Under the pieces are notes generated by a model. It had not been told where the DNA came from and did no database searches. It saw only the letters and a program-made list of their open reading frames with translations. From positions 1 through 40,893 of IMG/VR virus record IMGVR_UViG_3300048575_000121: DNA of 40,893 nt. One strand, 5' to 3'. Numbering within the stretch: the first letter of the stretch is position 1; every line of letters begins with the position of its first letter. Below, piece after piece: positions 2,373-29,016 of this stretch. The position numbers and the translations under genes were made by a program. The stretch is from a virus (taxonomy: Duplodnaviria; Caudoviricetes).

Positions 2373-3353
2373 TCAGCGCACTTTGACAGGCATTGTCGGG
2401 GCCTGAGCGATCTTCGGCAACCGCCCGCGCAAGTATCGTGCCGTCATCTTTGGATCGGAATGGCCGCCAAGCGTCTGTGCGTTCTTCCCTTCCTTGTCGG
2501 CGTCCGTCAGCGACTTTGCCCGGATGTCGTGGATGGTGACGTCGGTGATGCCCGTCTTCTCCCTCAACACCCTGAAAGCCATCTTCACCGTGGCGTAGCT
2601 GACGGGCTTTCCGGCGCGCGAGCAGAACAGCGTCAGGGTGCGAACCTTTCGCGGGAGCGCCTTCGCCCTGGCAATCACCTCCTCAAGGTCCGGCGTCATG
2701 GCCACTATGAGTTTGGCTCCAGTCTTCTGCTGGATGAACGCCACGCCATCCTGGGAGATGTCACTCAGGTGGATAGCCAGAACATCGCTGATGCGCTGGC
2801 CGGTCAGGTAGGCCATTTCGAGGATGCACCTGATGTAAGGGCTGGCGGCATTGAGCAGAGCCGCGAACTCCCCGTCCGTGATGTAGCGATCGCGCCTTCC
2901 CTCCTCGTGGCGGCTAACCCCAATGCAGGGGTTCGAGTCCACTTCCTGCCACTCCAGCCCATAGCCGAAGATGATTCGGGCGACAGACAGAATCCGGTTG
3001 CACATGTTTGGAGTGTTCACCAGGTCCATCTTCACCGCCGCGATGTGCTTCGGCATTACCTGCTTCGGATCGAACTCGGCGAAGATTTCCTTCAGGCGCT
3101 CCGCCGCCGCCTCGTACTGCAGCACAGTGTTGGCCGCCAGTTTCTTCTTCTTGAAGTGGTACTTCATGGCCCGATCGATCAGGTCAGGCATGCCGCCCTG
3201 CGTTGCCTGCGACATTTTGCGGGCGTACTCCAAAAGCGACTCCTGGTAGTCCTCGCCCAAGCGCAACCACTTGCTTTTCCGCACCAGGTAGTAGGCCCCG
3301 TGCTTGTGGTACATGCACTGCGGCAGGTGCCGGTCCTTCTTCCTCGGGCGCAT
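2373..3353 (-). CDS. int: Phage integrase (tyrosine recombinase)
   Basis: Catalytic motifs TGQRISD (R), QQKTG (K), HDIR, GGHSD, TARYLR (Y); located at the prophage edge. Confidence 0.93.
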   Translation of the reverse strand: MRPRKKDRHLPQCMYHKHGAYYLVRKSKWLRLGEDYQESLLEYARKMSQATQGGMPDLIDRAMKYHFKKKKLAANTVLQYEAAAERLKEIFAEFDPKQVMPKHIAAVKMDLVNTPNMCNRILSVARIIFGYGLEWQEVDSNPCIGVSRHEEGRRDRYITDGEFAALLNAASPYIRCILEMAYLTGQRISDVLAIHLSDISQDGVAFIQQKTGAKLIVAMTPDLEEVIARAKALPRKVRTLTLFCSRAGKPVSYATVKMAFRVLREKTGITDVTIHDIRAKSLTDADKEGKNAQTLGGHSDPKMTARYLRGRLPKIAQAPTMPVKVR

Positions 3354-4954: not shown

Positions 4955-5045
4955 GGGGTGGCTCCTTGGCCGGCGGCGTGCAGCGCAGGCAGTCGCATTC
5001 GTTGGTGGGGCGGCCAGTGCCGCGGCAGTATTCGGGGCGGTTCAT
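4938..5045 (-). CDS. Small Cys-rich peptide (35 aa)
   Basis: MNRPEYCRGTGRPTNECDCLRCTPPAKEPPHAPAS; ATGA overlap with the upstream stop. Confidence 0.45.
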   Translation of the reverse strand: MNRPEYCRGTGRPTNECDCLRCTPPAKEPPHAPAS

Positions 5046-5485
5046 TGGATCTCCCAGAGCAGTTTCTGCCCCTGGTTCGGCGTCTCGACGCGCGGGCGGC
5101 TGGGGCAGTTCCAACTGCCGCCGCCGCGGATGCCGACCAGGTGCCAGCCGCTGGCGCGCAGGCTGGCGCCGGCCTCGCTGGCGAGGATGTAGGTGATGAG
5201 GCGGCGGTAGCCCAGGGCGCGGGTGGCGCGCCAGGCTGCGCCGTAGAGCTTCGAGCAGCCATTGCGGGTTCCGTCGGTGCAGCAGCGGGTTACCTCGAGC
5301 GTCAGACCGTCGTCGAGGTGTCGCGCGACGGGGCGGCCGACGATGGCCACCCCGACGATGCGGTCCCCGGCGGCCAGGCCAAGGCTGAACTTGTGGCCCT
5401 GGACCTGGCCGTGGTGGCGGTGGTGCTGCTCGACGAACGTGTTGGCCTCTGCGAGGGTGAGGGGGCAGATGTCGAGTCGCCCCAT
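5042..5485 (-). CDS. XF1762-family / Mom-like GNAT-fold protein
   Basis: EANTFVEQHHRHH...GVAIVGRPVAR..LEVTRCCTDGTRNGCSKLY..LITY..E.GASLRASGW. Confidence 0.7.
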   Translation of the reverse strand: MGRLDICPLTLAEANTFVEQHHRHHGQVQGHKFSLGLAAGDRIVGVAIVGRPVARHLDDGLTLEVTRCCTDGTRNGCSKLYGAAWRATRALGYRRLITYILASEAGASLRASGWHLVGIRGGGSWNCPSRPRVETPNQGQKLLWEIQ

Positions 5486-5487
5486 CG

Positions 5488-5889
5488 CTATTCCCCGCCT
5501 GGCCGGTTGCGGATCAGGGCGCGCTTCGCCCAACTGGTGCGGTCGAGCAGCATGCTGGTGATGAAGTAGAAGTTGCGCCGGCGGTTGACGATGATCTCCT
5601 CGTGCCTGGGGTCGCCCGGGTTGAGTACCTGGTGGACGCGGAAGTGCTTGATCTCGCCCCGGGCGTCGTAGACGCGCAGCTTGTCGCCGGCGCGCACCTG
5701 GCCGGCGGCGCGCACCTCGGTCCATTCGAACTCCTCTTCGCGCAGGACGCTGGCGCATGCGGTGCGTGCCGCGCGCGCCAGCGCCCGGGCCAGGTCGGTG
5801 GGCGTCTGGCGTCGGATCACGTCGGGGTTGAACTCGCGGGCGCACAGCTTAATGAAGTAGTCGGCGTCGAGGCCGTGCTCATTGGTCAT
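5488..5889 (-). CDS. Phage hypothetical protein
   Basis: 133-aa ORF packed in the operon. Confidence 0.65.
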   Translation of the reverse strand: MTNEHGLDADYFIKLCAREFNPDVIRRQTPTDLARALARAARTACASVLREEEFEWTEVRAAGQVRAGDKLRVYDARGEIKHFRVHQVLNPGDPRHEEIIVNRRRNFYFITSMLLDRTSWAKRALIRNRPGGE

Positions 5890-5892
5890 GAC

Positions 5893-6210
5893 TCAATCCA
5901 ACTGGTAGTAGACGTGGCAGGAGATGCCGGCCGCCTGCAGGTGCTTGGCCATGGCCTGCACACCGGCTGCGCGGCGGTTACCGATACCGGCGAATGGCGC
6001 ATCAAGGTGGAACCAGCCAGCGAAGCGGCCTTTGAAGAGCACCGGAACACCGGCCTTCTTGAGCGAGGCGGTGCGGACGCCGGCGAGGTCGGTCAGAACC
6101 ACGTGATCCAGGTTCGCGGAGCCGCGGTCATCAGGCTGGGCCGTTGCGGCGGCGCGGCCCGCCTCGATGGCTTCCCGACACAGCGCGGCGATATGGTTGA
6201 GGTCAGTCAT
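5893..6210 (-). CDS. Phage hypothetical protein
   Basis: MTDLNHIAALC...YYQLD; ATGA overlap with the upstream gene. Confidence 0.65.
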   Translation of the reverse strand: MTDLNHIAALCREAIEAGRAAATAQPDDRGSANLDHVVLTDLAGVRTASLKKAGVPVLFKGRFAGWFHLDAPFAGIGNRRAAGVQAMAKHLQAAGISCHVYYQLD

Positions 6211-6911
6211 GGCGTCACCTGCTTGAACTCGACCACCCATACCCAGGGGTTGGCGTCCCAACTGTCGGCGCCGTTGATTGATCGCCACAGGTGCTCGAAG
6301 GCATGTTGCGGCCAGGTGAACGCAGGGCCGCCTTCGTCAGTTGCGAACCACCGGCGCTTGTCGAAGTGCACACCCTCGGCGATAGCCTGCTCCTCGCTGA
6401 TGTCCTGCAGGCGCTCGACGCGCACGGCGGTGATCTCCAGCAGGATGCGGCTGGCCCAGCGCGGCATGTGGATGCTTGGGCGGTGGCGCCAGATCTTGTT
6501 CGGTTCCGCTGCGGAATAGGCGCCGTTGCGCAAGCCGCTCGGGTAGTGGCGGTTGGGCTCGTTCGGCGGGGGGCCGTCGGCCGAGTAGACAATCCGCTTG
6601 CTGCCGAACCAGGCGCCGGTGTCGTCTTCCGGGTAGGTGGCCTGCCAGTCGCCAGCCTGCCACCAGCTCTCGCGTACCCACAGGCGGTCGCCGGGCTTGC
6701 CGTATGGGCAAGCACGCACCTGCTCATCCCACCCTGCATCGGGGTTGTGCGGTTTCGGCGGCATCCAGGCCCAGGGGTTGTTCGCGTAAGGGAAGACCTC
6801 GGTAACTATCGCAGGCCACGACGGCTTGACGATCCGGCGCGTGACCGTCTTCCGGCCTTCCAGGATGGCGCGGACCATGGCGCCGCTGAACAGGATGGGG
6901 CGCTCCTTCAT
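6207..6911 (-). CDS. ASCH/PUA-like phage protein
   Basis: MKERPILFSGAMVRAILEGRKTVTRR, CPYGKPGDRLWVRE, PSIHMPRWASRILLEI..VRVERLQDISE, WDANPWVWVVEF. Confidence 0.8.
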   Translation of the reverse strand: MKERPILFSGAMVRAILEGRKTVTRRIVKPSWPAIVTEVFPYANNPWAWMPPKPHNPDAGWDEQVRACPYGKPGDRLWVRESWWQAGDWQATYPEDDTGAWFGSKRIVYSADGPPPNEPNRHYPSGLRNGAYSAAEPNKIWRHRPSIHMPRWASRILLEITAVRVERLQDISEEQAIAEGVHFDKRRWFATDEGGPAFTWPQHAFEHLWRSINGADSWDANPWVWVVEFKQVTP

Positions 6912-7228
6912 GCTGCGCTCCTTGCGGGCTCGGTGATGGTGTCGGCCATGACGATCTTCATTCCCAGGTCCACGGCCAGCGCGCGCTCGATGTTGGCGCC
7001 GCGGGAGGCGAGCCAGCCCGGGAGCAGGGCGATGGTTTCGCAGGTGACCAACTGGGCCAGAGCCAGGCGCATGTAGCCGGCCCAGGTGCCGCAGGCGGGC
7101 GCTGCGTTCTCGGCCGGGTTCTCGACGTGGTAGCCGAGCTGGCGCAGGCGCGCGGCCTCGGCGTGGAAGGCCGGGTAGTTGAACTCCGGCAGGCCTGTGC
7201 AAGGCCCTGCAAGATAGATTCGGATCAT
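6908..7228 (-). CDS. DUF4406 protein (nucleoside deoxyribosyltransferase-like fold)
   Basis: IYLAGPxTGLPEFNYPAF...NPAE...LLPGW..SRGA.IE. Confidence 0.8.
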   Translation of the reverse strand: MIRIYLAGPCTGLPEFNYPAFHAEAARLRQLGYHVENPAENAAPACGTWAGYMRLALAQLVTCETIALLPGWLASRGANIERALAVDLGMKIVMADTITEPARSAA

Positions 7229-11850: not shown

Positions 11851-12552
11851 ATGGTCGGAATTGCGCACATTGCCCAGTACCAAGAAGCGTACAAAGCGGC
11901 GCTGACTATCAACCGGGAATTCCCGAACTTAGATGCTCAAGGGCTGTTGATCCTGTTCGGTAATTTCGAACGGCTGATAGTTCCGCTTGTTGAGGAGGTT
12001 GCGCCTGGATGGGAGCACTGCGGCTCTCTCGGGCGCCATATGACTTTCTTGAAGCGATACCTCGACCACGGGCAGAAAGAGCTGTGTGCAAGCGACGCGT
12101 TCGACATCGTCTACTACGACATGCCAATCCTTGCGGACTACTTGATTGCTGGAGCTGGCGGGCCTGGTGAAACGGACCCGCGCTTATTTGAGGCCACGAA
12201 CCGGCTGTTTGAAATCGGCGACCACGCCTCGGTGATTCGCGCCGCATTCCCTGTGCTTTCTGCGCGGCTTCGCCGGCTCTTTGGTATTCCGCTCGGGTCG
12301 GATGGCGAAGGATTGGTTAATGCCATCTTCGCCAGAGGCGAAGGAACTAACCCTGTCCGTCTTGATAACGACGAGAAGACTGCATACAGAAACTTGCTGG
12401 CAGGGTTTTATGCGACTTATAGGAACAGGCTGAACCATGATGATTTCCAGCCGACACTATCTCAGGCAAAGGGCGTAGTTGAGATGACAAACTCGCTAAT
12501 TAAGGACCTTGAGGAAGTTGCCGAACAATCCGCGAGGCAGAACTTGCCTTGA
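11851..12552 (+). CDS. TIGR02391/Ymh-like (HEPN-like) domain protein, moron
   Basis: DPRL....LF..GD....I..AF...LR....SDG..LV..IF...LLAG.Y..YRNRLNH (RxxxxH); lower GC and opposite orientation to the operon. Confidence 0.6.
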   Translation: MVGIAHIAQYQEAYKAALTINREFPNLDAQGLLILFGNFERLIVPLVEEVAPGWEHCGSLGRHMTFLKRYLDHGQKELCASDAFDIVYYDMPILADYLIAGAGGPGETDPRLFEATNRLFEIGDHASVIRAAFPVLSARLRRLFGIPLGSDGEGLVNAIFARGEGTNPVRLDNDEKTAYRNLLAGFYATYRNRLNHDDFQPTLSQAKGVVEMTNSLIKDLEEVAEQSARQNLP

Positions 12553-12644
12553 TATTTCGGCAACTCGGGCCCTGCTAGCGCAATGGCATGGAGCGGGGTA
12601 GGTTCGTTAGCCCGGCATGGGGCCGGATTAAGGAGAAAGTGAAA

Positions 12645-12863
12645 ATGGAAAACGACCAGGACATCTACAAGCGCAAGCTCGGCGTCCCAGCGGAGCATTC
12701 GCTCGTAGAGACTGCATCCAAGCGTGAGCAGCGGCATGGCCAGGACGCGGACATCTACTGGTTCGACGAGGTAGACGCGGAGGGGAATGTGGTGAATCAG
12801 CACGTCCTTCGCGACAGCATGTCGATCTATCCGCCGTACGGCAGGACCATCACCGTAGAGTGA
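12645..12863 (+). CDS. Hypothetical protein (72 aa), moron
   Basis: TAAGGAG RBS; MENDQDIYKRKLG... Confidence 0.6.
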   Translation: MENDQDIYKRKLGVPAEHSLVETASKREQRHGQDADIYWFDEVDAEGNVVNQHVLRDSMSIYPPYGRTITVE

Positions 12864-12880: not shown

Positions 12881-13666
12881 CTAGCCCCGCACCTCCATGT
12901 ACGCTGCTACGAACTGCGTCGCCGCTTCAGCATTGAGGGCGTTTCCGTAGGCGCGCAGGCGTCCACCTCGATCGGTATTGCCATCAGCCAACGGCTCAAT
13001 GCCGGGTTCAAGTAGACGCCAGGAACCGTCGGCTCCTTCCATTGGGACCGCGGCAGACCATGGAGGCAAGCCGCATCGGTCAGGGTAACCCCCCCGTGGT
13101 GCCGACTTCCCTGCCTCCGGCTGCTCGTTGCATTTCGACTCCCGATGGCGTCCTGGGCGGTTGGCGTGGGCCACGATCCACAGGCGTTGTCTGAGGTGCG
13201 GAGCGCCGATCCCCGCAGAGCAGATATCGAACGCTGCGCAGGCGTAGTTCTCTCCCTCCATGTCAGCCTGAACAAGGTCGAGCCACGCGAGGCCAGCCTT
13301 GCTCGCAACCTGCTCCCCAAAGATGACTTCAGGACGGCACTCTCGGATGAGATGATGCCATGCTGGCCAAAGGTGCCGCTCATCAGCAAACCCAAGCTGC
13401 GCGCCTCCCTCGCTGAAAGGTTGGCAAGGACAGGAACCCGTCCAAACAGGTCGATCATCTGGCCATCCGGCGCGGCGAAGGGCGAGAGACCAGACGCCGA
13501 TACCGGCGAAGAAGTGGCATTGGGTGTAAGGGCGGAGGTCATCGGGGTGTACGTCCTCGATCGAGCGTTCGTCGACGTCGCCAGGCGCGATGTGGCCGGC
13601 GGCGATCAGGTTGCGTAGCCACTGGGCGGCGTAGGCGTCGTGCTCGTTGTAGTAGGCGGCATGCAT
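12881..13666 (-). CDS. DNA cytosine-C5 methyltransferase (alpha-like polypeptide)
   Basis: HFFAGIG (motif I), GSCPCQPFS (IV), FGEQV (VI), APHLRQRLW (VIII), LRAYGNA (X). Confidence 0.88.
   Translation of the reverse strand: MHAAYYNEHDAYAAQWLRNLIAAGHIAPGDVDERSIEDVHPDDLRPYTQCHFFAGIGVWSLALRRAGWPDDRPVWTGSCPCQPFSEGGAQLGFADERHLWPAWHHLIRECRPEVIFGEQVASKAGLAWLDLVQADMEGENYACAAFDICSAGIGAPHLRQRLWIVAHANRPGRHRESKCNEQPEAGKSAPRGGYPDRCGLPPWSAAVPMEGADGSWRLLEPGIEPLADGNTDRGGRLRAYGNALNAEAATQFVAAYMEVRG
12907..13542 (-). CDS. Overprinted alternative-frame ORF, putative beta subunit of the MTase (start uncertain)
   Basis: Open 211 codons inside the MTase gene; WPTPTAQD and LNPALSRWLMAIP (motif IX-like, absent from the main frame). 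Confidence 0.55.
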   Translation of the reverse strand: MTSALTPNATSSPVSASGLSPFAAPDGQMIDLFGRVPVLANLSAREARSLGLLMSGTFGQHGIISSESAVLKSSLGSRLRARLASRGSTLFRLTWRERTTPAQRSISALRGSALRTSDNACGSWPTPTAQDAIGSRNATSSRRQGSRHHGGVTLTDAACLHGLPRSQWKEPTVPGVYLNPALSRWLMAIPIEVDACAPTETPSMLKRRRSS

Positions 13667-13668
13667 GG

Positions 13669-14049
13669 CTATGCCGCACTGCGGTTCGGCTGTGCTCCGT
13701 AGGGTGCCCACCCGATCTTCGGCGCCTTGGTCTTCTTGTCGATGAGGGGATTGCCCTTCTCATCGGTGAGGGTGACGCGCGCTTTGATGTGCATGTCGCG
13801 GCACTTCAAGGTCCGCCGCGCCAGGCGGATGAAGTCGTCGGCGTACTGGGGCGAGTCGAACAGAGGACTGAGCTGCTTGGTCTTCGTGCCGGCCATGATC
13901 TCGTCGGCGCGCTTCTCGCAGAGCGCGAGCCACTCGGTCATGGGGATGCCAACCTCGCCATGCAGGGTTTTCCGAGTTATCTTCACGGTCTTCCTGGCCT
14001 GCTCAAGCGCCACGTCTCGAGTCATTCCGAATACGGCGAAGGTACTCAT
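13669..14049 (-). CDS. Phage hypothetical protein
   Basis: MSTFAVFGMTRDVA...; GGAGG RBS, ATGA overlap. Confidence 0.7.
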   Translation of the reverse strand: MSTFAVFGMTRDVALEQARKTVKITRKTLHGEVGIPMTEWLALCEKRADEIMAGTKTKQLSPLFDSPQYADDFIRLARRTLKCRDMHIKARVTLTDEKGNPLIDKKTKAPKIGWAPYGAQPNRSAA

Positions 14050-15419: not shown

Positions 15420-16508
15420 TTACTGGTAGGTCTTGGTCAGCGAGCCGCTGACCGACTTTCCTCGGTTCAGGACCACCCTCGCCAGCGCCGCGCGGTCCTG
15501 GTGTGAATGACTGGCCTGGCGCAGCAGGCCGAAGTAGCTATTGGCGACGGTCCGCATGTCCTCCGGCGGCGCCGCGGCGACTCGCCGAAGCGCCTCCTTC
15601 GCGGTCCGCTTCCTGGTAGTGCGCCGCCAGGGTTTGATGACGTGGCCGACGAAGTCGACGCCGCGCTCAACGGGCTGCAGGATGGTCTTCGCCGGGTTGA
15701 GCCGGGCGCCCAGGCTGGGCAGGAACGCCTCGATCGCCTCGCGCCACTCGTTGAGCTGCTGCGGCGACTCATGCAGCAGCAGGAAGTCGTCGACGTACCT
15801 GATGTAGTGCCGCGCGTGCAGCTCGTGCTTCACGAACTGATCAAGGTCGTTCAGATAGATGTTGGCGAAGAACTGGCTGCTGAGGTTGCCGATGGGAAGT
15901 CCCAGGTGTGCCGGCTGGGAGGCGAGCTGCTTGTGCTGTGGGACCTTGTTGAAAAGCTTGGGCGAGCTGCGCACCTCGTAGTCGGTCCGTGGATCGTGCC
16001 AGAGGATCTGCAGCGCCAGGCGCCTCCACCAGGTGTCATCGATCAGGCGCACCAGCTGGTTGCTGAGCACGCGCTTGTCGATCGTGACGAAGAAGTTCGC
16101 CAGGTCCAGCTTGAGGTAGTGCGCCGGGCGGCTCCAGTTCTGCGTCACGCTCCGTATCTTGCTTTCGAGCCGCTCGGCGGCGTACAGCGTGCCGCGGCCC
16201 GGGATGCAAGCGCAGCTGTCGGCGACGAACTTTGCTTCGATGCTGGCGCCGACCTGGTTGTAGAGCAGGTGATGCACTATGCGGTCGCGGAATTCTGCGG
16301 CCCACACCTCGCGATGCTTCGGCCGGGTGACGACGAAGCAGATACTTCGGCCAGGCCGGTAGGTACCGGCCAGCAACTCGTCGTGGAGATCCAGCAGGTT
16401 CTCCTCGAGGTTCATCTCGAAGTGCCGTGCGCTGTTGGTGTTGCGCTTGTGGCGCCGGCAGTCGAAGTAGGCCTGGGCCAGGTCTTCGAAAGTGAAGGGT
16501 GCAACCAT
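15420..16508 (-). CDS. DGR reverse transcriptase (frame stays open upstream through the TR to 16718; start uncertain)
   Basis: RPKHREVWAAEFRDRIVHH, SCACIPGRGT, YLKLDLANFF, GLPIGNLSSQFFANIYL (DGR-type), YIRYVDD, GVDFVG. Confidence 0.95.
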   Translation of the reverse strand: MVAPFTFEDLAQAYFDCRRHKRNTNSARHFEMNLEENLLDLHDELLAGTYRPGRSICFVVTRPKHREVWAAEFRDRIVHHLLYNQVGASIEAKFVADSCACIPGRGTLYAAERLESKIRSVTQNWSRPAHYLKLDLANFFVTIDKRVLSNQLVRLIDDTWWRRLALQILWHDPRTDYEVRSSPKLFNKVPQHKQLASQPAHLGLPIGNLSSQFFANIYLNDLDQFVKHELHARHYIRYVDDFLLLHESPQQLNEWREAIEAFLPSLGARLNPAKTILQPVERGVDFVGHVIKPWRRTTRKRTAKEALRRVAAAPPEDMRTVANSYFGLLRQASHSHQDRAALARVVLNRGKSVSGSLTKTYQ

Positions 16509-16513
16509 CAAAT

Positions 16514-16613
16514 CTGCGGACGGGGCGGGCGACGCGCTCGTTGTTCTTGTCGTTGTTGTTCTGCCAGCCATCTTCGAAGTCCATGTTGTAGGCGTTGTTG
16601 GCGGAGCGCTGCG
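16514..16613 (-). repeat. DGR template repeat (TR), 100 bp
   Basis: CGCAGCGCTCCGCCAACAACGCCTACAACATGGACTTCGAAGATGGCTGGCAGAACAACAACGACAAGAACAACGAGCGCGTCGCCCGCCCCGTCCGCAG; 29 A, 8 AAC codons; lies between avd and RT. Confidence 0.96.
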
Positions 16614-16769
16614 ACCTATCGTGCTATCCACGTCGCCCCGCCGATTGCTCAACGGAGAAACTGCGCCAGGCCTCGCCGGTAGCCGGTGGTCCCTGTGGGT
16701 GCGCATGGCGGTGCCCAACCGGGCAGCGGCACGACCAGATTTGGCGCGCAGGCAGGAGGGCCGTAACCC

Positions 16770-17126
16770 TCAAGCAACGGGCGCAGTTTCGGTGGCTTTC
16801 TTCCAGGCGTTGGCCTGGCGGCCGATGGAAGCGGTCAGCTTCATGGCCTTGGCTTGCTGCGGGATGCTGATGAATCGCTCGTTCACCATCGCGCGCAGCA
16901 GCAGGTTGATCTTCCAGATGCTCTGGAGCAGCTCATCAAGGAGCGGGCGACGGTTGCGATCCATGTTGGCTCGGCCGATCAGCACCAGGACCTCCAGGGC
17001 CTCATCGCGGAGCTTGCCGCCGATGAGTTGCTTCATGTCGCGCGGGATGTGCCGAACCAGCTTGAGCACGACGCCGAACAGCTCCTCGGCACTGCGGTGG
17101 ATCTCGAGTTCGGTGTGCAGCGCCAT
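16770..17126 (-). CDS. avd: DGR accessory variability determinant (Avd-like four-helix bundle)
   Basis: 118-aa basic helical protein (IPRDMKQLIGGKL...IGRQANAWKK), GAGG RBS, directly upstream of TR-RT. Confidence 0.85.
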   Translation of the reverse strand: MALHTELEIHRSAEELFGVVLKLVRHIPRDMKQLIGGKLRDEALEVLVLIGRANMDRNRRPLLDELLQSIWKINLLLRAMVNERFISIPQQAKAMKLTASIGRQANAWKKATETAPVA

Positions 17127-17147
17127 CCCGACTACCTCGAAAAGCGA

Positions 17148-17163
17148 GGGCGCTGACGCGCCC
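17148..17163 (-). promoter_or_regulatory. GC hairpin downstream of VR1 (candidate retrohoming cis element)
   Basis: GGGCGC-GTCA-GCGCCC, about 33 nt past the VR1 end. Confidence 0.5.
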
Positions 17164-17183
17164 ATGAATGAAGGATTGAAGGA

Positions 17184-17783
17184 CTAGATGAATTTCCTGC
17201 GGACGGGGCGGGCGACGCGCTCGTAGCTCTTGACGTTGCTGTCCTGCCAGCCACCTTCGAAGTCCATGATGTAGGCGAGGTCGGCGGAGCGCTGCGTGCT
17301 CGACCAGTGATAGCCCTTGCTGAACAACTCGGGCACGTTCGCCTCGGCGATCTGGTTCTCGCGACGGGAGCCAAGGTAGAAGTCGGCATGGCCATCGGCG
17401 GTGTACTCCGAGGCCAGCTTCGCCGCCGGGTGCTCCTCGCTGTCGCCCAGCAGGGCCCGGGTGTTCGCTAGGCCGTCGCTGGCACTGTCGGCGCCCTCGG
17501 TTTCGTGCCCGTAGCCACCATAGGCTGCGCGGAACTCTGCAGCGGGGCCGGCGGCCACGATCAGGTAGTAGTCGCGACCGCCATTCTCGCCGCGCACCAG
17601 GCCGGCGTTGTGGCCGCCCTCACCGGGCCAGTAGGCGCCGAGCGGCGGGATGCTGTTGGCCGGTTCGAGGGTGCTGAACACAGCATCGCGAATCGGTTCG
17701 ACCGCCAGGTCGGGGCTGAAGAAATTGATGGTCAGGTGGTTCAGGCGCCCGATCTTCAGCGCGGGCAGTTGCTTCGCTTGCAT
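17184..17783 (-). CDS. DGR target protein 1 (C-terminal CLec/DUF1566-like variable domain)
   Basis: Ends YHWSSTQRSADLAYIMDFEGGWQDSNVKSYERVARPVRRKFI, which contains VR1; GAGG RBS. Confidence 0.9.
   Translation of the reverse strand: MQAKQLPALKIGRLNHLTINFFSPDLAVEPIRDAVFSTLEPANSIPPLGAYWPGEGGHNAGLVRGENGGRDYYLIVAAGPAAEFRAAYGGYGHETEGADSASDGLANTRALLGDSEEHPAAKLASEYTADGHADFYLGSRRENQIAEANVPELFSKGYHWSSTQRSADLAYIMDFEGGWQDSNVKSYERVARPVRRKFI
17197..17296 (-). repeat. DGR variable repeat VR1
   Basis: 100-bp ungapped match to the TR with 10 mismatches, all at TR adenines. Confidence 0.96.
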
Positions 17784-17844
17784 GGGAGGTCCTCAACGGA
17801 ATAGGGCGCAGGCGGCCGGCGCTTGCCCGGCATGCTTCTGGTCT

Positions 17845-17863
17845 GACCGCGGTGGGCGCGGTC
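17845..17863 (-). promoter_or_regulatory. GC hairpin downstream of VR2 (candidate retrohoming cis element)
   Basis: GACCGCG-CCCAC-CGCGGTC. Confidence 0.4.
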
Positions 17864-17901
17864 CCGCGAATCGCCTGCTGGAGAAGGAATGAATCAGTGG
17901 A

Positions 17902-18381
17902 TCACTGAAGGATGGGCAGGCTGCGGACGGGGCGGGCGACGCGCTCGCCGTCCTTGTCGACGTAGTGCTGCCAGCCATCTCCGAAGTCCATGCTGTAGGC
18001 GCCGTAGGCGGAGCGCTGCGCGCTCAGCCAATAGAGGCGGTCCTCGCGCAGATCGGTGACCAGACCGGCGTGCTTGGCCGCCATCAGCAGTTGGCCTTCC
18101 AGAGGTGCGGCGATGTGCGCACCCAACTCCAGGACCTTCTTGGCGAGTTCGCAGCCGGCTTCAGCCATGGCGCGGGTGTTGGCCAGGCCGTCGACGTAGT
18201 GGGTGAGCACGTCCAGGCCATACTCGCCCCAGGCGCCTTCCAGTTCGTACTCGGGGCCGAGCATTACCAGGGCGCGCTCCTGTGCGTTCACCCAGTAGCG
18301 TTCAACGAAGGTGCCGCCGGCCAGGGGCTGGCCGCGGGCGGGAAGTTCTGCAGCGGAAATGCTGGTGATGATCTCGGTCAT
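17902..18381 (-). CDS. DGR target protein 2 (CLec/DUF1566-like)
   Basis: MTEIITS... with AAGGA RBS; shares DGLANTRA with target 1; ends YWLSAQRSAYGAYSMDFGDGWQHYVDKDGERVARPVRSLPILQ. Confidence 0.9.
   Translation of the reverse strand: MTEIITSISAAELPARGQPLAGGTFVERYWVNAQERALVMLGPEYELEGAWGEYGLDVLTHYVDGLANTRAMAEAGCELAKKVLELGAHIAAPLEGQLLMAAKHAGLVTDLREDRLYWLSAQRSAYGAYSMDFGDGWQHYVDKDGERVARPVRSLPILQ
17921..18020 (-). repeat. DGR variable repeat VR2
   Basis: 100-bp ungapped match to the TR with 12 mismatches, all at TR adenines. Confidence 0.96.
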
Positions 18382-18409: not shown

Positions 18410-18433
18410 AAAAAGGCCCGGCCGGAGCCGGGC
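18410..18433 (-). terminator. Intrinsic terminator just upstream of the DGR target genes
   Basis: Minus strand GCCCGG-CTCCGG-CCGGGC-CTTTTT. Confidence 0.55.
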
Positions 18434-19946: not shown

Positions 19947-20054
19947 AATATGTACCATAGGTTCACTTTAGGTCAAGAACCAAAAGTACATATTTTGGCC
20001 GAATGATCACATGTGATTGTTTTTAGTGAATAAATTTTATGTACCGATGGTTCT
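19947..20054 (-). promoter_or_regulatory. PL promoter / OL operators
   Basis: 15-bp quasi-palindromes TGTACCATAGGTTCA (19951), AGAACCAAAAGTACA (19976), TGTACCGATGGTTCT (20040); -35 TTGACC at 19976-19971. Confidence 0.75.
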
Positions 20055-20078
20055 TGATTCGCCGCGTTCTATCTAATA

Positions 20079-20094
20079 CTGTATGTGCATACAG
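20079..20094 (+). promoter_or_regulatory. LexA (SOS) box
   Basis: Perfect palindrome CTGT-ATGTGCAT-ACAG overlapping the -10 (TACTGT) of a TTGATT-17-TACTGT promoter. Confidence 0.85.
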
Positions 20095-20116
20095 TTATTG
20101 CAAAAGGAGAGTTGTA

Positions 20117-20374
20117 ATGGCGAAGCAAGCAAAGAGGCAGGAACCCCGCGCACCGAGCAGCTACGAGGTGCTGGGGAGAAGAATTCAGCGACTGATGGGC
20201 ATGCCGGCCGCGCAGCTGGCGCGGTCGCTGACCATCAGGAAGGAGGAGGGTGAGAGCCAGGTTGACTGGGACCGGCTGCTGGACGAGATGACCCTGGCTG
20301 ACGGGGTGGACATCGAGGAGGGAGAGGAGGGCGCTGTCACCATTCGGTGGCAGGTGGACGAGAGCGCCTGGTAG
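20117..20374 (+). CDS. DUF1654-like protein
   Basis: SYEVLGRRIQRLM..PAAQ...TI...EGE...DWDRLL.E...V.I.W; AGGAG RBS. Confidence 0.75.
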   Translation: MAKQAKRQEPRAPSSYEVLGRRIQRLMGMPAAQLARSLTIRKEEGESQVDWDRLLDEMTLADGVDIEEGEEGAVTIRWQVDESAW

Positions 20375-20459
20375 GGAAGGCTGGGCGCCCCGCGCTGATG
20401 TGGTGATGAGCCGCGTAGCCATGGATGTACAATCCGCGCGCCCAAACCAGGAAGCGAAA

Positions 20460-20813
20460 ATGAACAGCGTTAGCCGCAGGATCGATCAGTTGCGCCGGAA
20501 AATCCCTGGCTTCGAGTGCAAGTCTGGCTGCCACGACTGCTGCGGACCGGTCACTGCGTCTTCGGAAGAGATGGCCCGGCTGCCAGCCAAGAGTCAGGCC
20601 GAGCACGATGCTGCCTTGGCGGAGTGGAGCTGTGTCCATCTTGGCCCCAATGGGTGCGAGGCGTATGAGCAGCGCCCACTCATCTGCCGGCTGTTCGGGA
20701 CCACGCCCAGCATGCCGTGTCCGGAGGGGAGAGGGCCCGAGACGCCTACGGATGAATCGGTGGTGCGGCAGGTCCACCAACTGATCGCCAGTACGCGACA
20801 GGTTCTGGTTTAG
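20460..20813 (+). CDS. YkgJ-family cysteine-cluster (Zn/Fe-chelating) protein
   Basis: FECKSGCHDCCGPV...CVHL...GC..YEQRPLICRLFG. Confidence 0.85.
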   Translation: MNSVSRRIDQLRRKIPGFECKSGCHDCCGPVTASSEEMARLPAKSQAEHDAALAEWSCVHLGPNGCEAYEQRPLICRLFGTTPSMPCPEGRGPETPTDESVVRQVHQLIASTRQVLV

Positions 20814-20821
20814 GCTGCTGA

Positions 20822-20859
20822 GAAACGAAAAGCCCCGCAGTGCGGGGCTTTGTCGTTTC
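20822..20859. terminator. Bidirectional intrinsic terminator
   Basis: AAAGCCCCGCA-G-TGCGGGGCTTT between convergent genes. Confidence 0.8.
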
Positions 20860-21694
20860 AATGAATGGCTTCTGGGATGCCTTGCCGAATCTCGTCCAGC
20901 AGACTTTGATCGGGAAGTTCGTTGCTGACTACTCGGACCGAATCGATCTCGATGAGCTGATCCACAATGTCGCTATACGCCGAGAGCAGTTTTTGTTTCT
21001 TGCTTGCTGGCGGCGCAGCAATAAACAGGGTGTCTCGAGCCAGTTTATTGGCCCTATGGAGTCTACGTACCTTTGCGAGCCAGGCATCGCCGTGCTCGAG
21101 TATCTTCGCTGGCTCATCGTGCCCCAAGTGAATAGGCTTGATGGCTTGAACGGCGCCATCGGTGTCCAGAATCACATAGGGGAATTTTACCGGGTAGTCG
21201 GTGGTTCCTAGCTTCTGCTCCTTGTAGCGCTGCTTGAGGTTGGCGGCTGCAAGCAGATGCCCAAGCTGACGCTCCAACACTTTCTCCTCATACTCCTTGC
21301 TCGCGAAGCTGAGGTTGATGTAGTGGTCGAAGATTGATTGGAGCGCCTCATCAACCCTCTCCACAGCGATGGTTCCAGGCGCGCTGAAGCGCATCATGGT
21401 CTCGCGTGGATGGATCAGGCTCTTGAATGCTGCAAGCTGAGTGGATTGCTGGTCCCGGTACTTGCTGAAGAAGATCGACAGGCGCGCGAGTTCCTGCTCA
21501 ACCTCGGCGCGCGCGCGGATGTATATCTTGGCGTCGAGCTTGTGGAAGAAGTTGGTCACACGCTGGCGCTTGGTTTCGACTTTGTAGTGAAACTCGCCAT
21601 TGCTGGCCAGCAGAACCACTCCGATATTCACGAACTCCCCCGTCTCGGGGTAGGGGAGGAATCGCAGGATCGAATAGTTGCAGAAGTAGTTCAT
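20858..21694 (-). CDS. DUF3037-domain protein
   Basis: YSILRFLPYPETGEFVNIGVVL N-terminal signature; ATGA overlap with the kinase. Confidence 0.8.
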   Translation of the reverse strand: MNYFCNYSILRFLPYPETGEFVNIGVVLLASNGEFHYKVETKRQRVTNFFHKLDAKIYIRARAEVEQELARLSIFFSKYRDQQSTQLAAFKSLIHPRETMMRFSAPGTIAVERVDEALQSIFDHYINLSFASKEYEEKVLERQLGHLLAAANLKQRYKEQKLGTTDYPVKFPYVILDTDGAVQAIKPIHLGHDEPAKILEHGDAWLAKVRRLHRANKLARDTLFIAAPPASKKQKLLSAYSDIVDQLIEIDSVRVVSNELPDQSLLDEIRQGIPEAIH

Positions 21695-22434
21695 AGCTGC
21701 CCCCAGAAGCGCTCGTCCCTGAACTGATGCAGCGTTTCAAGCCTTTGAAGCAGGGTGGGAATGGTTTCGTCGATCTCGTCCGAATCTCGGTAGATCCACT
21801 CTACCGGCAAAAGGGCTACGATCCTATCCCAATGCCCAAGGGCTGCGTCAAGTTCCCGTGCATATTCCTGACGAGTGACCAGGTCCTGGAAGTGACGGAG
21901 CTGATCGCGGAACACGTGGTTGTCGCAAAACTCTTCAGCGGTCAGGCTGGCATCGAACGCCACGTTGTGATCGATCACCACTAGGTTGCCCTGTGAGTCC
22001 AGGAGGAGATTAACGTTCCCTCCGTTTTCGCCAAGGCATCGGTCACCATTCTGAATCCACCAGTCGAAAAGCAAGACTTTGCGCTGCAGTTCCAGTGGGA
22101 CGCTTCGCAGGCCGGCCCACATCAGCTCGTTGACATTCTCGACCTGCCTTGAGGCGAAAGCAGGCCCCCCGGATAGGTCCCGAATGTTCTCCATGGGGCT
22201 GAAGTCGATAAGGCCCTGCGGGATGTCTATGATGCGCCATTCTGGAATCGGCAGCCCCATGAGCACGCCAAGCTCGGCAGCGATAACTTCAGACATCAGA
22301 GAAGGGCCGCCTGCGCGATTGAGCCCCTTCACAAAATAGCGATTTCCATCGTCGGCGCGCACCAGAAACGGCCTGACAGAGATGCCCTGCTCACTCTGGC
22401 GGATGACCTCTATGGCTGTGACCCGATCAGGCAT
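21691..22434 (-). CDS. HipA-family (HipA_2-like) kinase
   Basis: QGISVRPF..DDG..YFVKG, E.IAA.LG..MGLPIP, FDWWIQNGDR, NVNLL, VIDHN.AF. Confidence 0.82.
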   Translation of the reverse strand: MPDRVTAIEVIRQSEQGISVRPFLVRADDGNRYFVKGLNRAGGPSLMSEVIAAELGVLMGLPIPEWRIIDIPQGLIDFSPMENIRDLSGGPAFASRQVENVNELMWAGLRSVPLELQRKVLLFDWWIQNGDRCLGENGGNVNLLLDSQGNLVVIDHNVAFDASLTAEEFCDNHVFRDQLRHFQDLVTRQEYARELDAALGHWDRIVALLPVEWIYRDSDEIDETIPTLLQRLETLHQFRDERFWGQL

Positions 22435-22494: not shown

Positions 22495-23214
22495 CTACAG
22501 GTCTCCGCCACGCCAAACGATCTGCCCCATCAGCGACATTGGCTCGTCATCCTCGTCCAGCCATTGGTCAGGGAATTCGCGCTTGTCGAGGTTGTCGCTG
22601 ATCAGCCCCCACTGGTTCACAGCGCTGGCATGCGAAAGGCGCTTGATGATCACGCCGTCGGCGCCGTTGAGGGCGAAGATTGTGTTGTGGATCGGCTCCT
22701 TCTGAGCCTTGTTCAACAGCACCACGTCGCCATCGTTGATGGTGGGATGCATGCTCCACCCGTCGGCATAGAAGGCTTCCAGATATTTCACATTCAAGCC
22801 CCTGGCCATGATCCAGGATCGCTTGAACGCCAGATGCCCCTTCACTTCGACGTAGGGGTTCTCGTAGCCGCGGCCCATTGCGCCCCTGGCGCTCTTCAGC
22901 GGGACGTGGACGTATTCGTCATCGGATGAGTCCACCGAAGGTTCGGGCTCTGGCTTCGCCTGGTCCGACTCACGCATTTCGCCCAAGCCGTATTCCAGCC
23001 ATTCGACTCGCACACCCAATGAGCTGGCAATCGCCTGCATGTTGGTGCGGCCAGGCATGCTCTCCATGTTCAGCCATTTGCTTGCGGCCTTCGGCGTCAC
23101 CTTGGTGATTTCCGATAGGCGAGCGCCAAGCCCCCAGTCTGGAATACCCGAGGCGCTTGAAGCCTGCTTGAGGCGGGCGACGAAGGCCTGCCGTATATCG
23201 ATCGATTGAACCAT
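22495..23214 (-). CDS. cI: CI repressor (HTH + S24 peptidase)
   Basis: N-terminal HTH, MG-RG cleavage-region motif, DGWSMHPTINDGD (Ser), IIKRL (Lys), GQIVWRG; divergent from cro. Confidence 0.9.
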   Translation of the reverse strand: MVQSIDIRQAFVARLKQASSASGIPDWGLGARLSEITKVTPKAASKWLNMESMPGRTNMQAIASSLGVRVEWLEYGLGEMRESDQAKPEPEPSVDSSDDEYVHVPLKSARGAMGRGYENPYVEVKGHLAFKRSWIMARGLNVKYLEAFYADGWSMHPTINDGDVVLLNKAQKEPIHNTIFALNGADGVIIKRLSHASAVNQWGLISDNLDKREFPDQWLDEDDEPMSLMGQIVWRGGDL

Positions 23215-23278
23215 AGGTTCACTATCCCATGTGCTTGCCTGTACTTTCAGTTCCGATCTAATATGTACTTATGGTTCA
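23207..23278. promoter_or_regulatory. OR operators and PR
   Basis: TGAACCATAGGTTCA (23207, spans the cI ATG), TGTACTTTCAGTTCC (23240), TGTACTTATGGTTCA (23264); same consensus as OL; PR TTGCCT-18-TAATAT. Confidence 0.8.
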
Positions 23279-25252: not shown

Positions 25253-26001
25253 GTGTTCAAGCCATGACCTGGGCCCTGGAGCAGCGCGTGGTTACCGACT
25301 CCTCTGCCCGCCATGTGTTGCTGTGCCTGGCCAATTACGCCGACAAGCACGGCCGGGGCGCCTTCCCCTCGGTGGCCAGCCTTGCGGATGACACCGGCCT
25401 GTCCGAGCGGACCGTGCAGGCCAAGCTGCGCCTGCTGGAAGACCTGGGTGTGATTGTCGAGGGCAACCGGGCGATCGCCGCGGCGTACATCACCCGTCGG
25501 GACCGTGTTCCGACCTGCTACGACATCGTCATGGAACGGGGTGAAGCTGCTGCACCCCGTCAAAATGAACGGGGTGAAACCACTGCACCCCGTGAAGATG
25601 CCACGGGGTGCAATCTACAGCAGAACGGGGTGCAAATTACGACGGAACGGGGTGCAGCCGCTGCACCCAATCCGTCATTGAACCATCAGGTAACCGAAGA
25701 GCAGCTGCAACACGCGAGCGATCCGGTCGATGTTCGCCAGCGCTTCGCCATGACCGAGGACTGGGAGCCGGACCCTGACGACCTGGCTGCGCAGACTCGC
25801 CTGATGGGTATCCCGGTGTCGGCGATCACGCTGACCGTCGTGAACAAGTTCAAGGCCCACTGGCTGGCCCTGCCGGATGCCGTGTTCACCCAGGCCAAGT
25901 GGGCGAACGAGTTGGCGAAGTGGATCAAGCGGGAGCGCGTCGAGGACGCAGCAGGCGAGGCCGATGGCGGCGCCTGGGGCGCGAACGGGGTGCGCGTATG
26001 A
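25249..26001 (+). CDS. Replication initiator (O-like; N-terminal HTH, C-terminal DnaT-like)
   Basis: MSVQAMTWA..VLLCLANYAD..AFPSV.SLA.DTGLSERTV; internal iterons; RFAMTEDWEPD. Confidence 0.85.
   Translation: MSVQAMTWALEQRVVTDSSARHVLLCLANYADKHGRGAFPSVASLADDTGLSERTVQAKLRLLEDLGVIVEGNRAIAAAYITRRDRVPTCYDIVMERGEAAAPRQNERGETTAPREDATGCNLQQNGVQITTERGAAAAPNPSLNHQVTEEQLQHASDPVDVRQRFAMTEDWEPDPDDLAAQTRLMGIPVSAITLTVVNKFKAHWLALPDAVFTQAKWANELAKWIKRERVEDAAGEADGGAWGANGVRV
25534..25668. repeat. Iteron array (phage ori)
   Basis: Five direct ACGGGGTG copies and inverted TGCACCCC(GT) copies inside the initiator gene. Confidence 0.8.
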
Positions 26002-27266: not shown

Positions 27267-27697
27267 AGTCGCCCCGTCCCATTGCGCGTACCCCGCGCCC
27301 GCTGCGCCGTCCGAGGATTGATTGGGAAGGCAGGGAGCAGGCCGTCCTGTTCTCCATCCTCTCCCTGAAGCACCCAGAGGCCGCGCGGCTGGCATTCCAC
27401 GTGCCCAACGGTGGCCACCGGCACATCAAGGTCGCCGCGGAGATGAAGCGCCAGGGCGTGAAGGCCGGTGTCAGCGACATCGTGCTGCCCATGGCTCGCG
27501 GTGGCTGGTTCGGGCTGTACATTGAGTTCAAGGCCGCGCCGCCGAACGATGCCCGGGTGTCGCCCGAGCAGAGCGCGTTCCTATTGCGTGTCGAGCGGCA
27601 GGGCTACTACGCCACGGTGTGCCGCGGCGTCGACGATGCACTGCGGGTGATCGATGACTACCTGGCGCAGCCTCGGACCCAGGTGGTGCGCCAATGA
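27263..27697 (+). CDS. VRR-NUC nuclease
   Basis: EGREQ..FHVPNGG...K.QGVKAGVSD...LYIEFK...SPEQ. Confidence 0.88.
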   Translation: MKSPRPIARTPRPLRRPRIDWEGREQAVLFSILSLKHPEAARLAFHVPNGGHRHIKVAAEMKRQGVKAGVSDIVLPMARGGWFGLYIEFKAAPPNDARVSPEQSAFLLRVERQGYYATVCRGVDDALRVIDDYLAQPRTQVVRQ

Positions 27698-29016
27698 CGA
27701 CCATCGCCGCTATCAGCTTCAGCGACGCCGAGATCCGCCGCCAGGCCGCCGGTGCCGTGCGTGAGCTCAAGGACCCACGCCACCCGGGGCTGCGCCTGCG
27801 CTTCCTGTCCGATCGGCAGCGCGGTTCCTGGTATGTCGTCAAGGCGCGCGGCTGGCATCGCGCCGGCCGCTGGCCCGAGATTCCGGCGAAGTCCATGCTG
27901 GAGATCCTGCCGAAGGTCCGGGCGCAACTGGCGGCAGAGCCGGATGCGCAGCTCGGTGCGGGTGGGCTGGCCACGGTCGGCGAGGTGCTGCGTTGGCAGT
28001 TGGATCGGCAACTGCGCAACCGCAACCTGTCGCAGAAGCGGAAGAAGTCGGTGAAGTCGATGATCAGCCGCCACCTGCTGCCTCGCCTTGGCGGTGTTCG
28101 TGTGGCCGATCTGACCAAGGCGCTCCTCGACCGCGAGCTGTTCTGGCCGCTGCAGGAGCAGTTCACCGCCGGCTACGTGCGCCAGGCTTATGGTGTGCTG
28201 GCTGGCGCGCTCCGCCAGGCCCAGCGCCTCGACCAGATCGCCGCGAACCCCATGGCCGGGATGCGGTTCACCGACTTCGTGCGTGCCAAGATCGTGCCGA
28301 AGGCTGCCGGCCTCCGTCCTGCGCAGCTGTGCGAGTTGGTCCCGCGCCTGGTTGAGCACTACCGGCAGCGCCCGGCGGAAGGGATGCTGGCCTTGCTGAT
28401 GCTCTGCCATGGCACGCGCTTGGGTGAGACCCGGGTGGCGCGCTGGCGTCACTTCAGCCTGCAGGAGCGCGTGTGGATTCTCCCGGCCGAGGAGACCAAG
28501 ACGCGGACGGAGCATGTCTTGCCGCTGACTGACCAAGTGGTGGCGCTGCTCGAGCAATACCGGGCCTGGCAGACCAGTAGTGTGGGCGAGTCGGCCTTCC
28601 TGTTTCCGGCCGGCCCGACCAAGGCGCTCTCGGAGAAGCAGGCCAGCGAGGTATTCGCTAGCCTGGGGGCTGGGGAGTGGACCAGCCACGACCTGCGCAA
28701 GCTGGCGCGCACTAGTTGGACCGAACTGGGCATCGACCATCTGATTGGCGAGATGCTGCTGAACCACGCCATGAAGGGAGTGGTGGCGGCCTACATCCAG
28801 ACGGCCGCCCAGGCACGCAAGCGGGAGGCTCTGGAACTGTGGCACGGCCATCTAGACGGGCATGGCTTCGGCGCTGTTCTCGGTCAGACAGGCGCTAGAT
28901 CGCACGAACCGCATTTCGGCTCTGAGGCCAATTCTGGCGAGGCCTCTAGCGATTCCTCGCGTCCAACAGGATGGAGGCTGCAAGAGGGGCTTGGAGAGGA
29001 GGGCGAGGCATGCTGA
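27694..29016 (+). CDS. Second tyrosine recombinase/integrase
   Basis: Arm-binding-like N-terminus (LKDPRHPGLRLR); GTRLGE (R), TKT (K), SHDLRK, LLNH, AAYIQ (Y). Confidence 0.85.
   Translation: MTTIAAISFSDAEIRRQAAGAVRELKDPRHPGLRLRFLSDRQRGSWYVVKARGWHRAGRWPEIPAKSMLEILPKVRAQLAAEPDAQLGAGGLATVGEVLRWQLDRQLRNRNLSQKRKKSVKSMISRHLLPRLGGVRVADLTKALLDRELFWPLQEQFTAGYVRQAYGVLAGALRQAQRLDQIAANPMAGMRFTDFVRAKIVPKAAGLRPAQLCELVPRLVEHYRQRPAEGMLALLMLCHGTRLGETRVARWRHFSLQERVWILPAEETKTRTEHVLPLTDQVVALLEQYRAWQTSSVGESAFLFPAGPTKALSEKQASEVFASLGAGEWTSHDLRKLARTSWTELGIDHLIGEMLLNHAMKGVVAAYIQTAAQARKREALELWHGHLDGHGFGAVLGQTGARSHEPHFGSEANSGEASSDSSRPTGWRLQEGLGEEGEAC

Follow-up and report, generated by a model that had tools for sequence, protein, structure and literature searches.

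Two small C-type lectin-fold proteins diversified by a retroelement in the early arm of a lambdoid prophage

Diversity-generating retroelements (DGRs) of phages are usually seen as devices that retune receptor binding. The locus described here belongs to a widespread clade whose mutagenesis is apparently spent only on early, non-virion proteins, and it raises the question of what such a system is for. The window (the whole stretch of DNA analysed, 40,893 nt) is a 40.9-kb lambdoid prophage record whose closest named homologs belong to Pseudomonas citronellolis-like strains. Its genes run from int (2373-3353) through cI (22495-23214), cro, cII and O/P to terS (32502) and on to the tail terminator gene, where the record stops; the tail-fibre genes lie outside it. 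A DGR cassette sits between cI and int, on the strand of both, in the order target A, target B, avd, RT-15 RNA, template repeat (TR) and reverse transcriptase (RT).

The retroelement and its diversified repeats

The features needed below are as follows.

15420-16508 (−): DGR reverse transcriptase, 362 aa, open frame with YVDD motif; RVT_1 E 5e-18, phrog_1423 E 2e-119
16514-16613 (−): TR, 28 adenines across 18 codons, AAC-rich
16612-16786 (−): RT-15 structured RNA (RF03018), directly 5′ of the TR; 153 bits (gathering score 82)
16770-17165 (−): avd accessory gene; phrog_3206 Avd E 2e-22
17148-17163 (−): GC hairpin 3′ of VR1; z −2.6 for a 71-nt stretch
17184-17783 (−): target B, 199 aa, the fold of target A, extended at the N-terminus by about 45 aa; phrog_4245 E 1e-30
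17197-17296 (−): variable repeat VR1, in target B; 10 mismatches to the TR, every one at a TR adenine
17902-18381 (−): target A, 159 aa, short N-terminus and stand-alone Lcl_C/DUF1566-type C-type lectin (CLec) domain; phrog_4245 E 1e-20
17921-18020 (−): variable repeat VR2, in target A; 12 mismatches to the TR, every one at a TR adenine
18416-18433 (−): intrinsic-terminator-like hairpin, 35 nt ahead of target A; z −2.5
19947-20053 (−): PL-like promoter region with three operator-like repeats (motif and promoter scan)
22495-23214 (−): CI-like repressor, HTH_3 and Peptidase_S24; phrog_4

Over 100 nt, neither VR differs from the TR at a non-adenine position. The match of the avd product to Pfam bAvd (PF22296; E 1e-8, 36.1 bits) lies just under the curated cut-off of 40, and the true avd start may lie about 13 codons downstream of the listed ORF start. 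The GC hairpin 3′ of VR1 is a candidate target-recognition hairpin of the DGR, or else a terminator. Our literature search found no paper on the RT-15 RNA; Weinberg 2017, as available, speculates that RT motifs play a part in DGRs, and its main text does not name RT-15. The cassette resembles that of BPP-1 (mtd-avd-TR-brt) in its order target-avd-TR-RT, in its adenine-only differences between TR and VR, and in a C-terminal VR within a CLec fold. It differs in that BPP-1 has a single tail-fibre target, whereas the window has two short, stand-alone, early-arm targets of the Lcl_C/DUF1566 type and its complete relatives carry no VR in a tail gene.

When each target was compared with its 13 ungapped close relatives, the VR differed from that of the window in 13 of 13 cases for both. 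At codons with a TR adenine, 54% of comparisons differed for B (126/234) and 53% for A (124/234), against 7.9% (187/2353) and 7.1% (131/1833) elsewhere, in line with the hypervariability that the first-pass annotation had ascribed to both proteins. With a different VR in every one of these relatives, the repeats show no convergence on one conserved ligand. Contigs from three public runs carried near-exact copies of RT and TR with differing VRs (33 of 40 rows among the matches listed, of 183). In run X1, RT and TR showed 2 differences across 1330 nt and the targets 29 across 1355 nt; run X3 had two alleles at several sites. A raw-read run consulted for expression, X21, placed no reads. Taken together, the adenine-only TR/VR pairs, the intact RT and Avd beside the TR, and the diversification of VRs among near-identical copies indicate that the DGR is real and active, retrohoming being read here from the pattern of substitutions.

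The theoretical repertoire amounts to 8e15 per target, an overestimate because ApG adenines were changed in just 5 of 440 cases. AAY codon outcomes in VRs were far from independence (chi2 362; 876 codons in 103 VRs), with Tyr, Gly, Leu and Thr up and Cys and Asn down, and Lys, Gln and Glu codons were retained at 92-99%. We considered this codon bias as proof of selection and dropped the argument, given the rarity of ApG changes and the RT-intrinsic nature of the +1-G suppression and snowball effect described in the accessible portion of the DGRec 2025 preprint.

Target fold, family and early-arm position

Both ORFs that the first-pass annotation had picked out as small targets, of 199 and 159 aa, are present. 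Its further description also held: A and B share the motifs DGLANTRA and W-x-S-x-Q...ARPVR and are otherwise divergent (35% identity over 123 aa), and by hydropathy neither has an evident signal peptide or transmembrane helix (maximum 19-residue Kyte-Doolittle value, KD19, of 1.09 for A and 0.65 for B). Both are acidic (pI 4.9 and 5.4). Neither matched Pfam at E 0.01, and both thus fall below the gathering cut-off of PF07603; many of their homologs are named DUF1566/PF07603, and the PF07603 scores of relatives range from under to over the cut-off. PADLOC returned no match for A or B.

Structure models (pLDDT 79.7 for A and 77.4 for B, with low confidence in the VR of both and pLDDT 45-51 over residues 1-40 of B) predict single CLec-fold domains, B with its extension. 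The best structural and profile match is the C-terminal domain of Legionella Lcl (8q4e, PF07603), with a profile E of 1.6e-4 for B and VIA alignments of Z 8.9 (rmsd 4.9, 107 aligned) for B and Z 6.9 (rmsd 3.3, 101 aligned) for A; at 15-22% identity, the common fold shows no common ligand. Lcl itself is a surface collagen-like protein that binds glycosaminoglycans. In the same VIA comparisons, the Bacteroides fimbrial protein 4eps scored Z 7.2 to A and 8.8 to B, and Mtd (1yu0) Z 3.3 to A; below the top, structural matches of both models were mostly C-type lectins. Foldseek against the PDB gave no match at E <= 0.001 and by itself reached only E 0.45. A BFVD structure search matched D3 orf68 alone. 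In the ESM Atlas, A fell with unnamed or Lcl_C clusters, and B had no leads other than sub-0.9 ones.

The two targets represent two classes. Among 60 RT-related IMG/VR loci, which are not independent of each other, 40 had two VRs, seven had three and one had five; five had one and seven had none detected, several of these at contig edges. At least one short-N and at least one long-N target occurred in 65 of 74 de-duplicated loci with a full RT, and four further "LL" calls look on inspection like mis-started A genes. In a quick target tree of few columns the classes clustered (15 changes against 62 in shuffles, a figure inflated by near-copies and some miscalled starts), and the pairing is kept across beta- and gammaproteobacterial phages. 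Targets range from 118 to 252 aa with no fibre or anchor domain; longer forms gave 5 matches among 7992 scored candidates. A search of the first 35 residues found a lipobox in none of 203 targets. A segment with KD19 >= 1.6 was found in 32 of these 203, several of them in B-type extensions (up to 2.18), which leaves the cytoplasmic location proposed earlier a presumption; the window's A and B have no hydrophobic segment. B-type extensions vary from beta-strand/helix to coiled-coil, some being Ala-rich and moderately hydrophobic, a variety that hints at oligomerisation or docking. Rare tandem fusions of two family domains (P0268, P0290, P0380), together with the 65/74 pairing, suggest an A-B heteromer. 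Other rare fusions join a family member to cytoplasmic-type domains (P0307, phrog_3007/phrog_947; P0269, DHH phosphoesterase). Fusions are singletons or small clusters and may represent stop read-through.

Against an obligate heteromer, A-type genes also stand alone, in D3 and in jumbo phages, under purifying selection. Scaffold pN/pS was 0.07 for A against L013 and 0.28-0.31 for B against three relatives. An RT match accompanied the target in 32 of 40 genome loci with an A alignment, some as fragments only; at E 1e-40 the target-bearing records with an RT were only Haboob, phPA-G, SC_8_H2H8, Cruim01 and LPPA56. Targets lack a neighbouring RT in D3, U7 and Medea1, and the RT module is truncated or missing in these three and in L096, L097 and L104. 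The latter three (about 6000-7100) and L004 (6294-7489) show two arrangements: a target A closely followed by no more than an RT fragment, B and avd having been lost, and, in phage U7, a B that terminates with the C-terminal residues of A. Such arrangements suggest that orphan targets arise by recombination between repeats. In the old D3 record (L002 7001-7561) orf68 carries a frameshift; in the resequenced phi_D3 (L080 1501-1989) it is intact. L014 (7621-8601) carries two extra A-type genes whose C-termini fail the TR match, one of them near the P. aeruginosa type, which looks like module swapping between DGR lineages. The records OK094664.1 (Shewanella phage vB_Sb_QDWS) and OP650936.1 ("Hujiaoplasma phage zrk29-1") are both 47,902 long with identical RT scores; their RT is near that of Burkholderia phages, and the host labels may be unreliable.

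An operator-like 15-nt motif, matched six times in the window against 0.18 expected, occurs in three copies at 19950-20053, where it overlaps the promoter-like site; a further copy at 23263 precedes cro. The promoter scan by itself performed at chance (2 found, 1.7 expected). Terminator-like sites numbered 12 against 7.0 ± 2.6 in shuffles, and the putative terminator at 18416-18433 would make the cassette delayed-early. Strand and a position behind PL-like operators are consistent with the CI-controlled PL operon proposed earlier, but the binding of CI to these sites, and with it control of the cassette, we infer from the motif. The distance of about 14 kb said to separate the targets from the nearest virion gene is right for terS (14.1 kb), but terS serves packaging; virion genes proper begin with that for the portal (34868), 16.5 kb off and, as claimed, on the opposite strand.

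Among relatives, 16 of the 60 RT-related viral loci were sampled (120 of 222 called ORFs scanned), and in 15 of them the cassette lies among cI/cII/replication, recombination or integrase genes; the exception, L057, adjoins lysis genes and one gene that matches a baseplate-hub profile. In the cultured Haboob, Cruim01 and Magia, cI lies upstream on the strand of the cassette, and phPA-G and QDWS have the same cassette. Searching the remainder of the prophage for a third VR, as the first-pass annotation had suggested, gave none in the 40.9 kb of a record without tail-fibre genes. TR searches of 19 records, including cultured genomes and the CheckV-complete G001, G002, G004, G006, G008 and G010, found no VR outside early arms. 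Besides the VRs of the cassette they gave a few remote third VRs: those of Magia (gp57) and Cruim01 (Cruim01_00061) lie just 3′ of cI, and that of QDWS about 4.5 kb upstream on the strand of the cassette. Whereas an Mtd-like target would sit in a tail module and carry a virion-anchoring N-terminal domain, A and B lie in the early arm and measure 159 and 199 aa.

Immediately 3′ of cI in the window, at the rexAB position (20858-22434, −), lie genes for a HipA-like kinase (PF20613) and a DUF3037 protein that match the PADLOC candidate PDC-M66A/B and form a probable prophage-encoded defence pair. The genes after cI vary among relatives; Haboob has a glycosyltransferase there.

Copies without a reverse transcriptase in jumbo phages

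An intact 163-aa A-type gene is present in nine PA5oct-like lytic jumbo phages (PA5oct, MIJ3, Paride, Ettore, Cassandra, Deifobo, Callisto, 30-2 and 30-3). PA5oct is a 287-kb myovirus; its gp104 is 47.5% identical to target A, and the gene is 89-90% identical at the nucleotide level to targets of P. aeruginosa-type temperate phages. It sits in a 2-kb island of 47-61% GC between flanks of 25-35%. PF00078 detected no RT in PA5oct, MIJ3, Paride, Ettore or phi_D3 (0/5), the other five jumbo phages being covered by tblastn only. From the TR common to L021, Haboob and phPA-G, the PA5oct VR differs at 15 adenines and 1 other base, which marks it as a DGR product. The nine copies represent four VR alleles, shared between isolates; their scaffold pN/pS is 0.23, and all nine are intact though unlinked to any RT. 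The gene looks dispensable because PAC2, a 286-kb relative, matches only 14% of the PA5oct island. Eight of the nine copies differ from the closest TR at hand at 5-13 non-adenine positions; this, with only four isolate-shared alleles in nine copies, disfavours ongoing retrohoming in trans, and repeated capture by recombination fits best as a reading of these alleles. The 3′ hairpin is missing in PA5oct, and its absence also from Haboob's targets makes this uninformative. The A-type gene is unannotated in Paride and Deifobo, where opposite-strand ORFs are called, and another frame is called in Cassandra (L079 695-1186, L126, L078).

According to the available text of Lood et al. 2020 (PMC7318152), most PA5oct genes from gp34 to gp105 are early; gp104 falls within this range, in the early terminal repeat. 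The virion mass spectrometry of the same work (Table S5, as available) comprises 93 proteins, from gp51 to gp123 and down to 8.6 kDa, and gp104 is not listed. This check of a single homolog agrees with the earlier proposal of a non-virion protein, in the measure that one orphan A-type homolog at 47.5% identity permits and given that low-copy proteins can be missed. The accessible MIJ3 mass spectrometry identified four proteins in all, none the A-type product, and the parts of PhageExpressionAtlas and of the Paride supplement list at hand contain nothing on the gene. Our search of the open literature found no report on orphan targets in jumbo phages.

What the diversified proteins may bind

A non-structural reading gains support from the jumbo orphans, from the virion check, from whole genomes in which tail genes have no VR, and from the pairing of two target classes. 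The view of A and B as non-tail, early, hypervariable CLec binders stands on their conserved context, on complete relatives without a tail-gene VR, and on the absence of gp104 from the virion list. Non-structural phage DGR targets as such are already in print. The second target of the Quimbyvirus DGR (Benler 2021, PMC8008677) is, in the passages available, non-structural, encoded on the strand opposite the virion genes near methyltransferases, with a proposed role in phage-host conflict; that DGR also hits a tail-module gene in a Bacteroides host, whereas every placed VR of the window family is non-structural. Burkholderia phage Magia, whose RT is 63% identical, has short CLec genes gp46 and gp47 before avd and a remote gp57, all early-arm. 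As available, its announcement (PMC7883833) names genes 47 and 57, to which the TR search adds a VR in gp46; it annotates the DGR only, reads it as adaptation or host range, and leaves early-arm position, two-class pairing and orphan copies undiscussed. In the accessible sections of Wu et al. 2018 (PMC5758913), short proteins consisting of DUF1566 only account for about half of the category "d"/CLec2 DUF1566 targets, and 13% of DGRs are two-target cassettes; Legionella LdtA, the example of this category, is a surface lipoprotein, whereas targets of the window family lack a lipobox. Clade 3 of Roux et al. (PC_00009) includes proteobacterial prophage DGRs with uncharacterised targets, and the passages seen from Wu and from Roux assign neither early-operon position nor function to such targets. 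The earlier statement that this arrangement has no characterised function agrees with the open literature searched, which offered none for these targets, but non-structural, conflict-related DGR targets of phages have been put forward before (Benler 2021).

We consider it probable that A and B are intracellular, non-virion, delayed-early binders. That they neutralise strain-variable host proteins, most probably components of anti-phage defence, is a more tentative proposal, quite possible without being probable. Upon induction, transcription from PL would read through the terminator at 18433-18416 and express A, B, Avd, TR-RNA and RT together. The DGR would rewrite adenine codons in the C-terminal repeats of A and B, and every lytic cycle would seed progeny with new VR alleles, most of them neutral as long as the host is permissive. 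The rare allele able to bind an infection-aborting host factor and block it would then sweep, after DNA entry, much as tropism variants of BPP-1 reportedly do. The extension of B would probably oligomerise or dock on A, adding avidity, and A could act alone. If A and B are indeed intracellular binders, DGR-driven adaptation reaches the stage after DNA entry.

Several observations favour this proposal. The position in early arms in 15 of 16 loci and the lack of a VR beyond early arms in 19 records argue for it, as do the rare fusions P0307 and P0269. Lambdoid temperate phages share an almost identical A-type gene (85-90% at the nucleotide level) with a 287-kb myovirus, which suits a host-directed role better than a virion part, and the accessory behaviour of the cassette, with its RT module truncated or missing in six records, counts in the same direction. 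A variable intracellular opponent would best suit a gene that is useful in lambdoid and jumbo phages alike, non-virion, under purifying selection, dispensable, and never convergent in its VR. Against it stand the closest solved folds, which are surface adhesins (Lcl-CTD and 4eps), the hydrophobic segments of 32/203 members, the location of L057, and the lack of a PADLOC match; divergent VRs equally fit near-neutral scrambling, and early arms carry many functions besides counter-defence. An extended version, which we regard as doubtful, would have a clade of proteobacterial prophage DGRs serve only as an antibody-like library for counter-immunity inside the cell. Two CLec proteins, diversified together, would supply alleles inhibiting host defence proteins to a shared pool; strictly lytic jumbo phages would repeatedly take finished alleles from it by recombination, or their copies would be written to in trans by the RT of a resident prophage.

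Other roles have to be weighed on the same evidence. It is unlikely that the proteins act, outside the virion, on other phages or at the surface, by binding proteins of co- or superinfecting phages or as envelope-bound or post-lysis soluble lectins that mask receptors. Their fold relatives do bind glycans or surfaces, some B-type extensions are moderately hydrophobic, and such a function would be just as portable to a jumbo phage and as absent from virions; but none of the 203 targets has a lipobox in its first 35 residues and the window's B has no hydrophobic segment. Exclusion morons, moreover, usually have promoters of their own that are active in the lysogen, unlike a cassette behind PL-like operators. 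Distinctly unlikely is an accessory receptor-binding or decoration protein, made early and loaded onto virions through the N-terminal extension of B as a docking peptide. Viral DGR targets are mostly structural, and Roux et al. assume the same of unannotated ones; Egorov et al. 2024 assign a receptor-binding role to a second target that is small and remote, and the Magia authors propose host-range change (PMC7883833), each in the parts available to us. Early-arm placement, the missing gp104, the lack of fibre or anchor domains and the sharing of nearly one A gene across unrelated virion architectures speak against it.

The positional and mass-spectrometric evidence would serve equally well for host-takeover adaptors acting on conserved cytoplasmic machines (RNA polymerase, replisome, proteases), and in P0307 a relative is fused to a domain that resembles processivity factors. 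A conserved ligand should nevertheless freeze the VR or make it converge, whereas 13 of 13 close relatives of each target differ and near-identical copies in the three runs differ chiefly in their VRs; since the genes are also often lost or orphaned, we hold such a role to be quite improbable. Frequent decay, and codon patterns that RT context bias can explain (ApG, 5/440; DGRec, as available), would suit a largely neutral or selfish cassette that spreads in a recombinogenic early arm with small targets as retained passengers. This is very improbable in view of scaffold pN/pS of 0.07-0.31, the intactness of 9/9 jumbo copies without a linked RT, and the pairing conserved across beta- and gammaproteobacterial phages. 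Least probable of all are prophage defence sensors in the style of the CLec antigen sensors proposed for multicellular bacteria, signalling to an effector such as the HipA-like kinase/DUF3037 pair: intracellular DGR sensors have a precedent (Dore 2023, as far as available) and a PDC-M66-like pair is at hand, but neither target carries an effector domain, relatives differ in the genes that follow cI, and strictly lytic jumbo phages retain the gene.

The family is tractable, with the whole cassette in the cultured phages Haboob, phPA-G, Cruim01 and Magia and frozen natural alleles in PA5oct and Paride. The early arm that holds the DGR in the window also encodes a Mom-like DNA modification protein (5042-5845, −) and a cytosine methylase (12881-13711, −). 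Moron-like genes oppose its direction at 11851-12552, 12588-12863 and 20039-20813 (all +), their products comprising Hypoth_Ymh, a 91-aa ORF without assignment, DUF1654 and a CxxCxxCC protein. A second gene of the tyrosine-recombinase family (27694-29016, +) lies in the rightward operon, flanked by VRR-NUC and the late genes. An exact copy of the operator-like 15-mer within terL (34226-34240, +) is either chance or a late-gene operator, and three 33-nt repeats within the O-like gene (25534-25677) are probably origin iterons.
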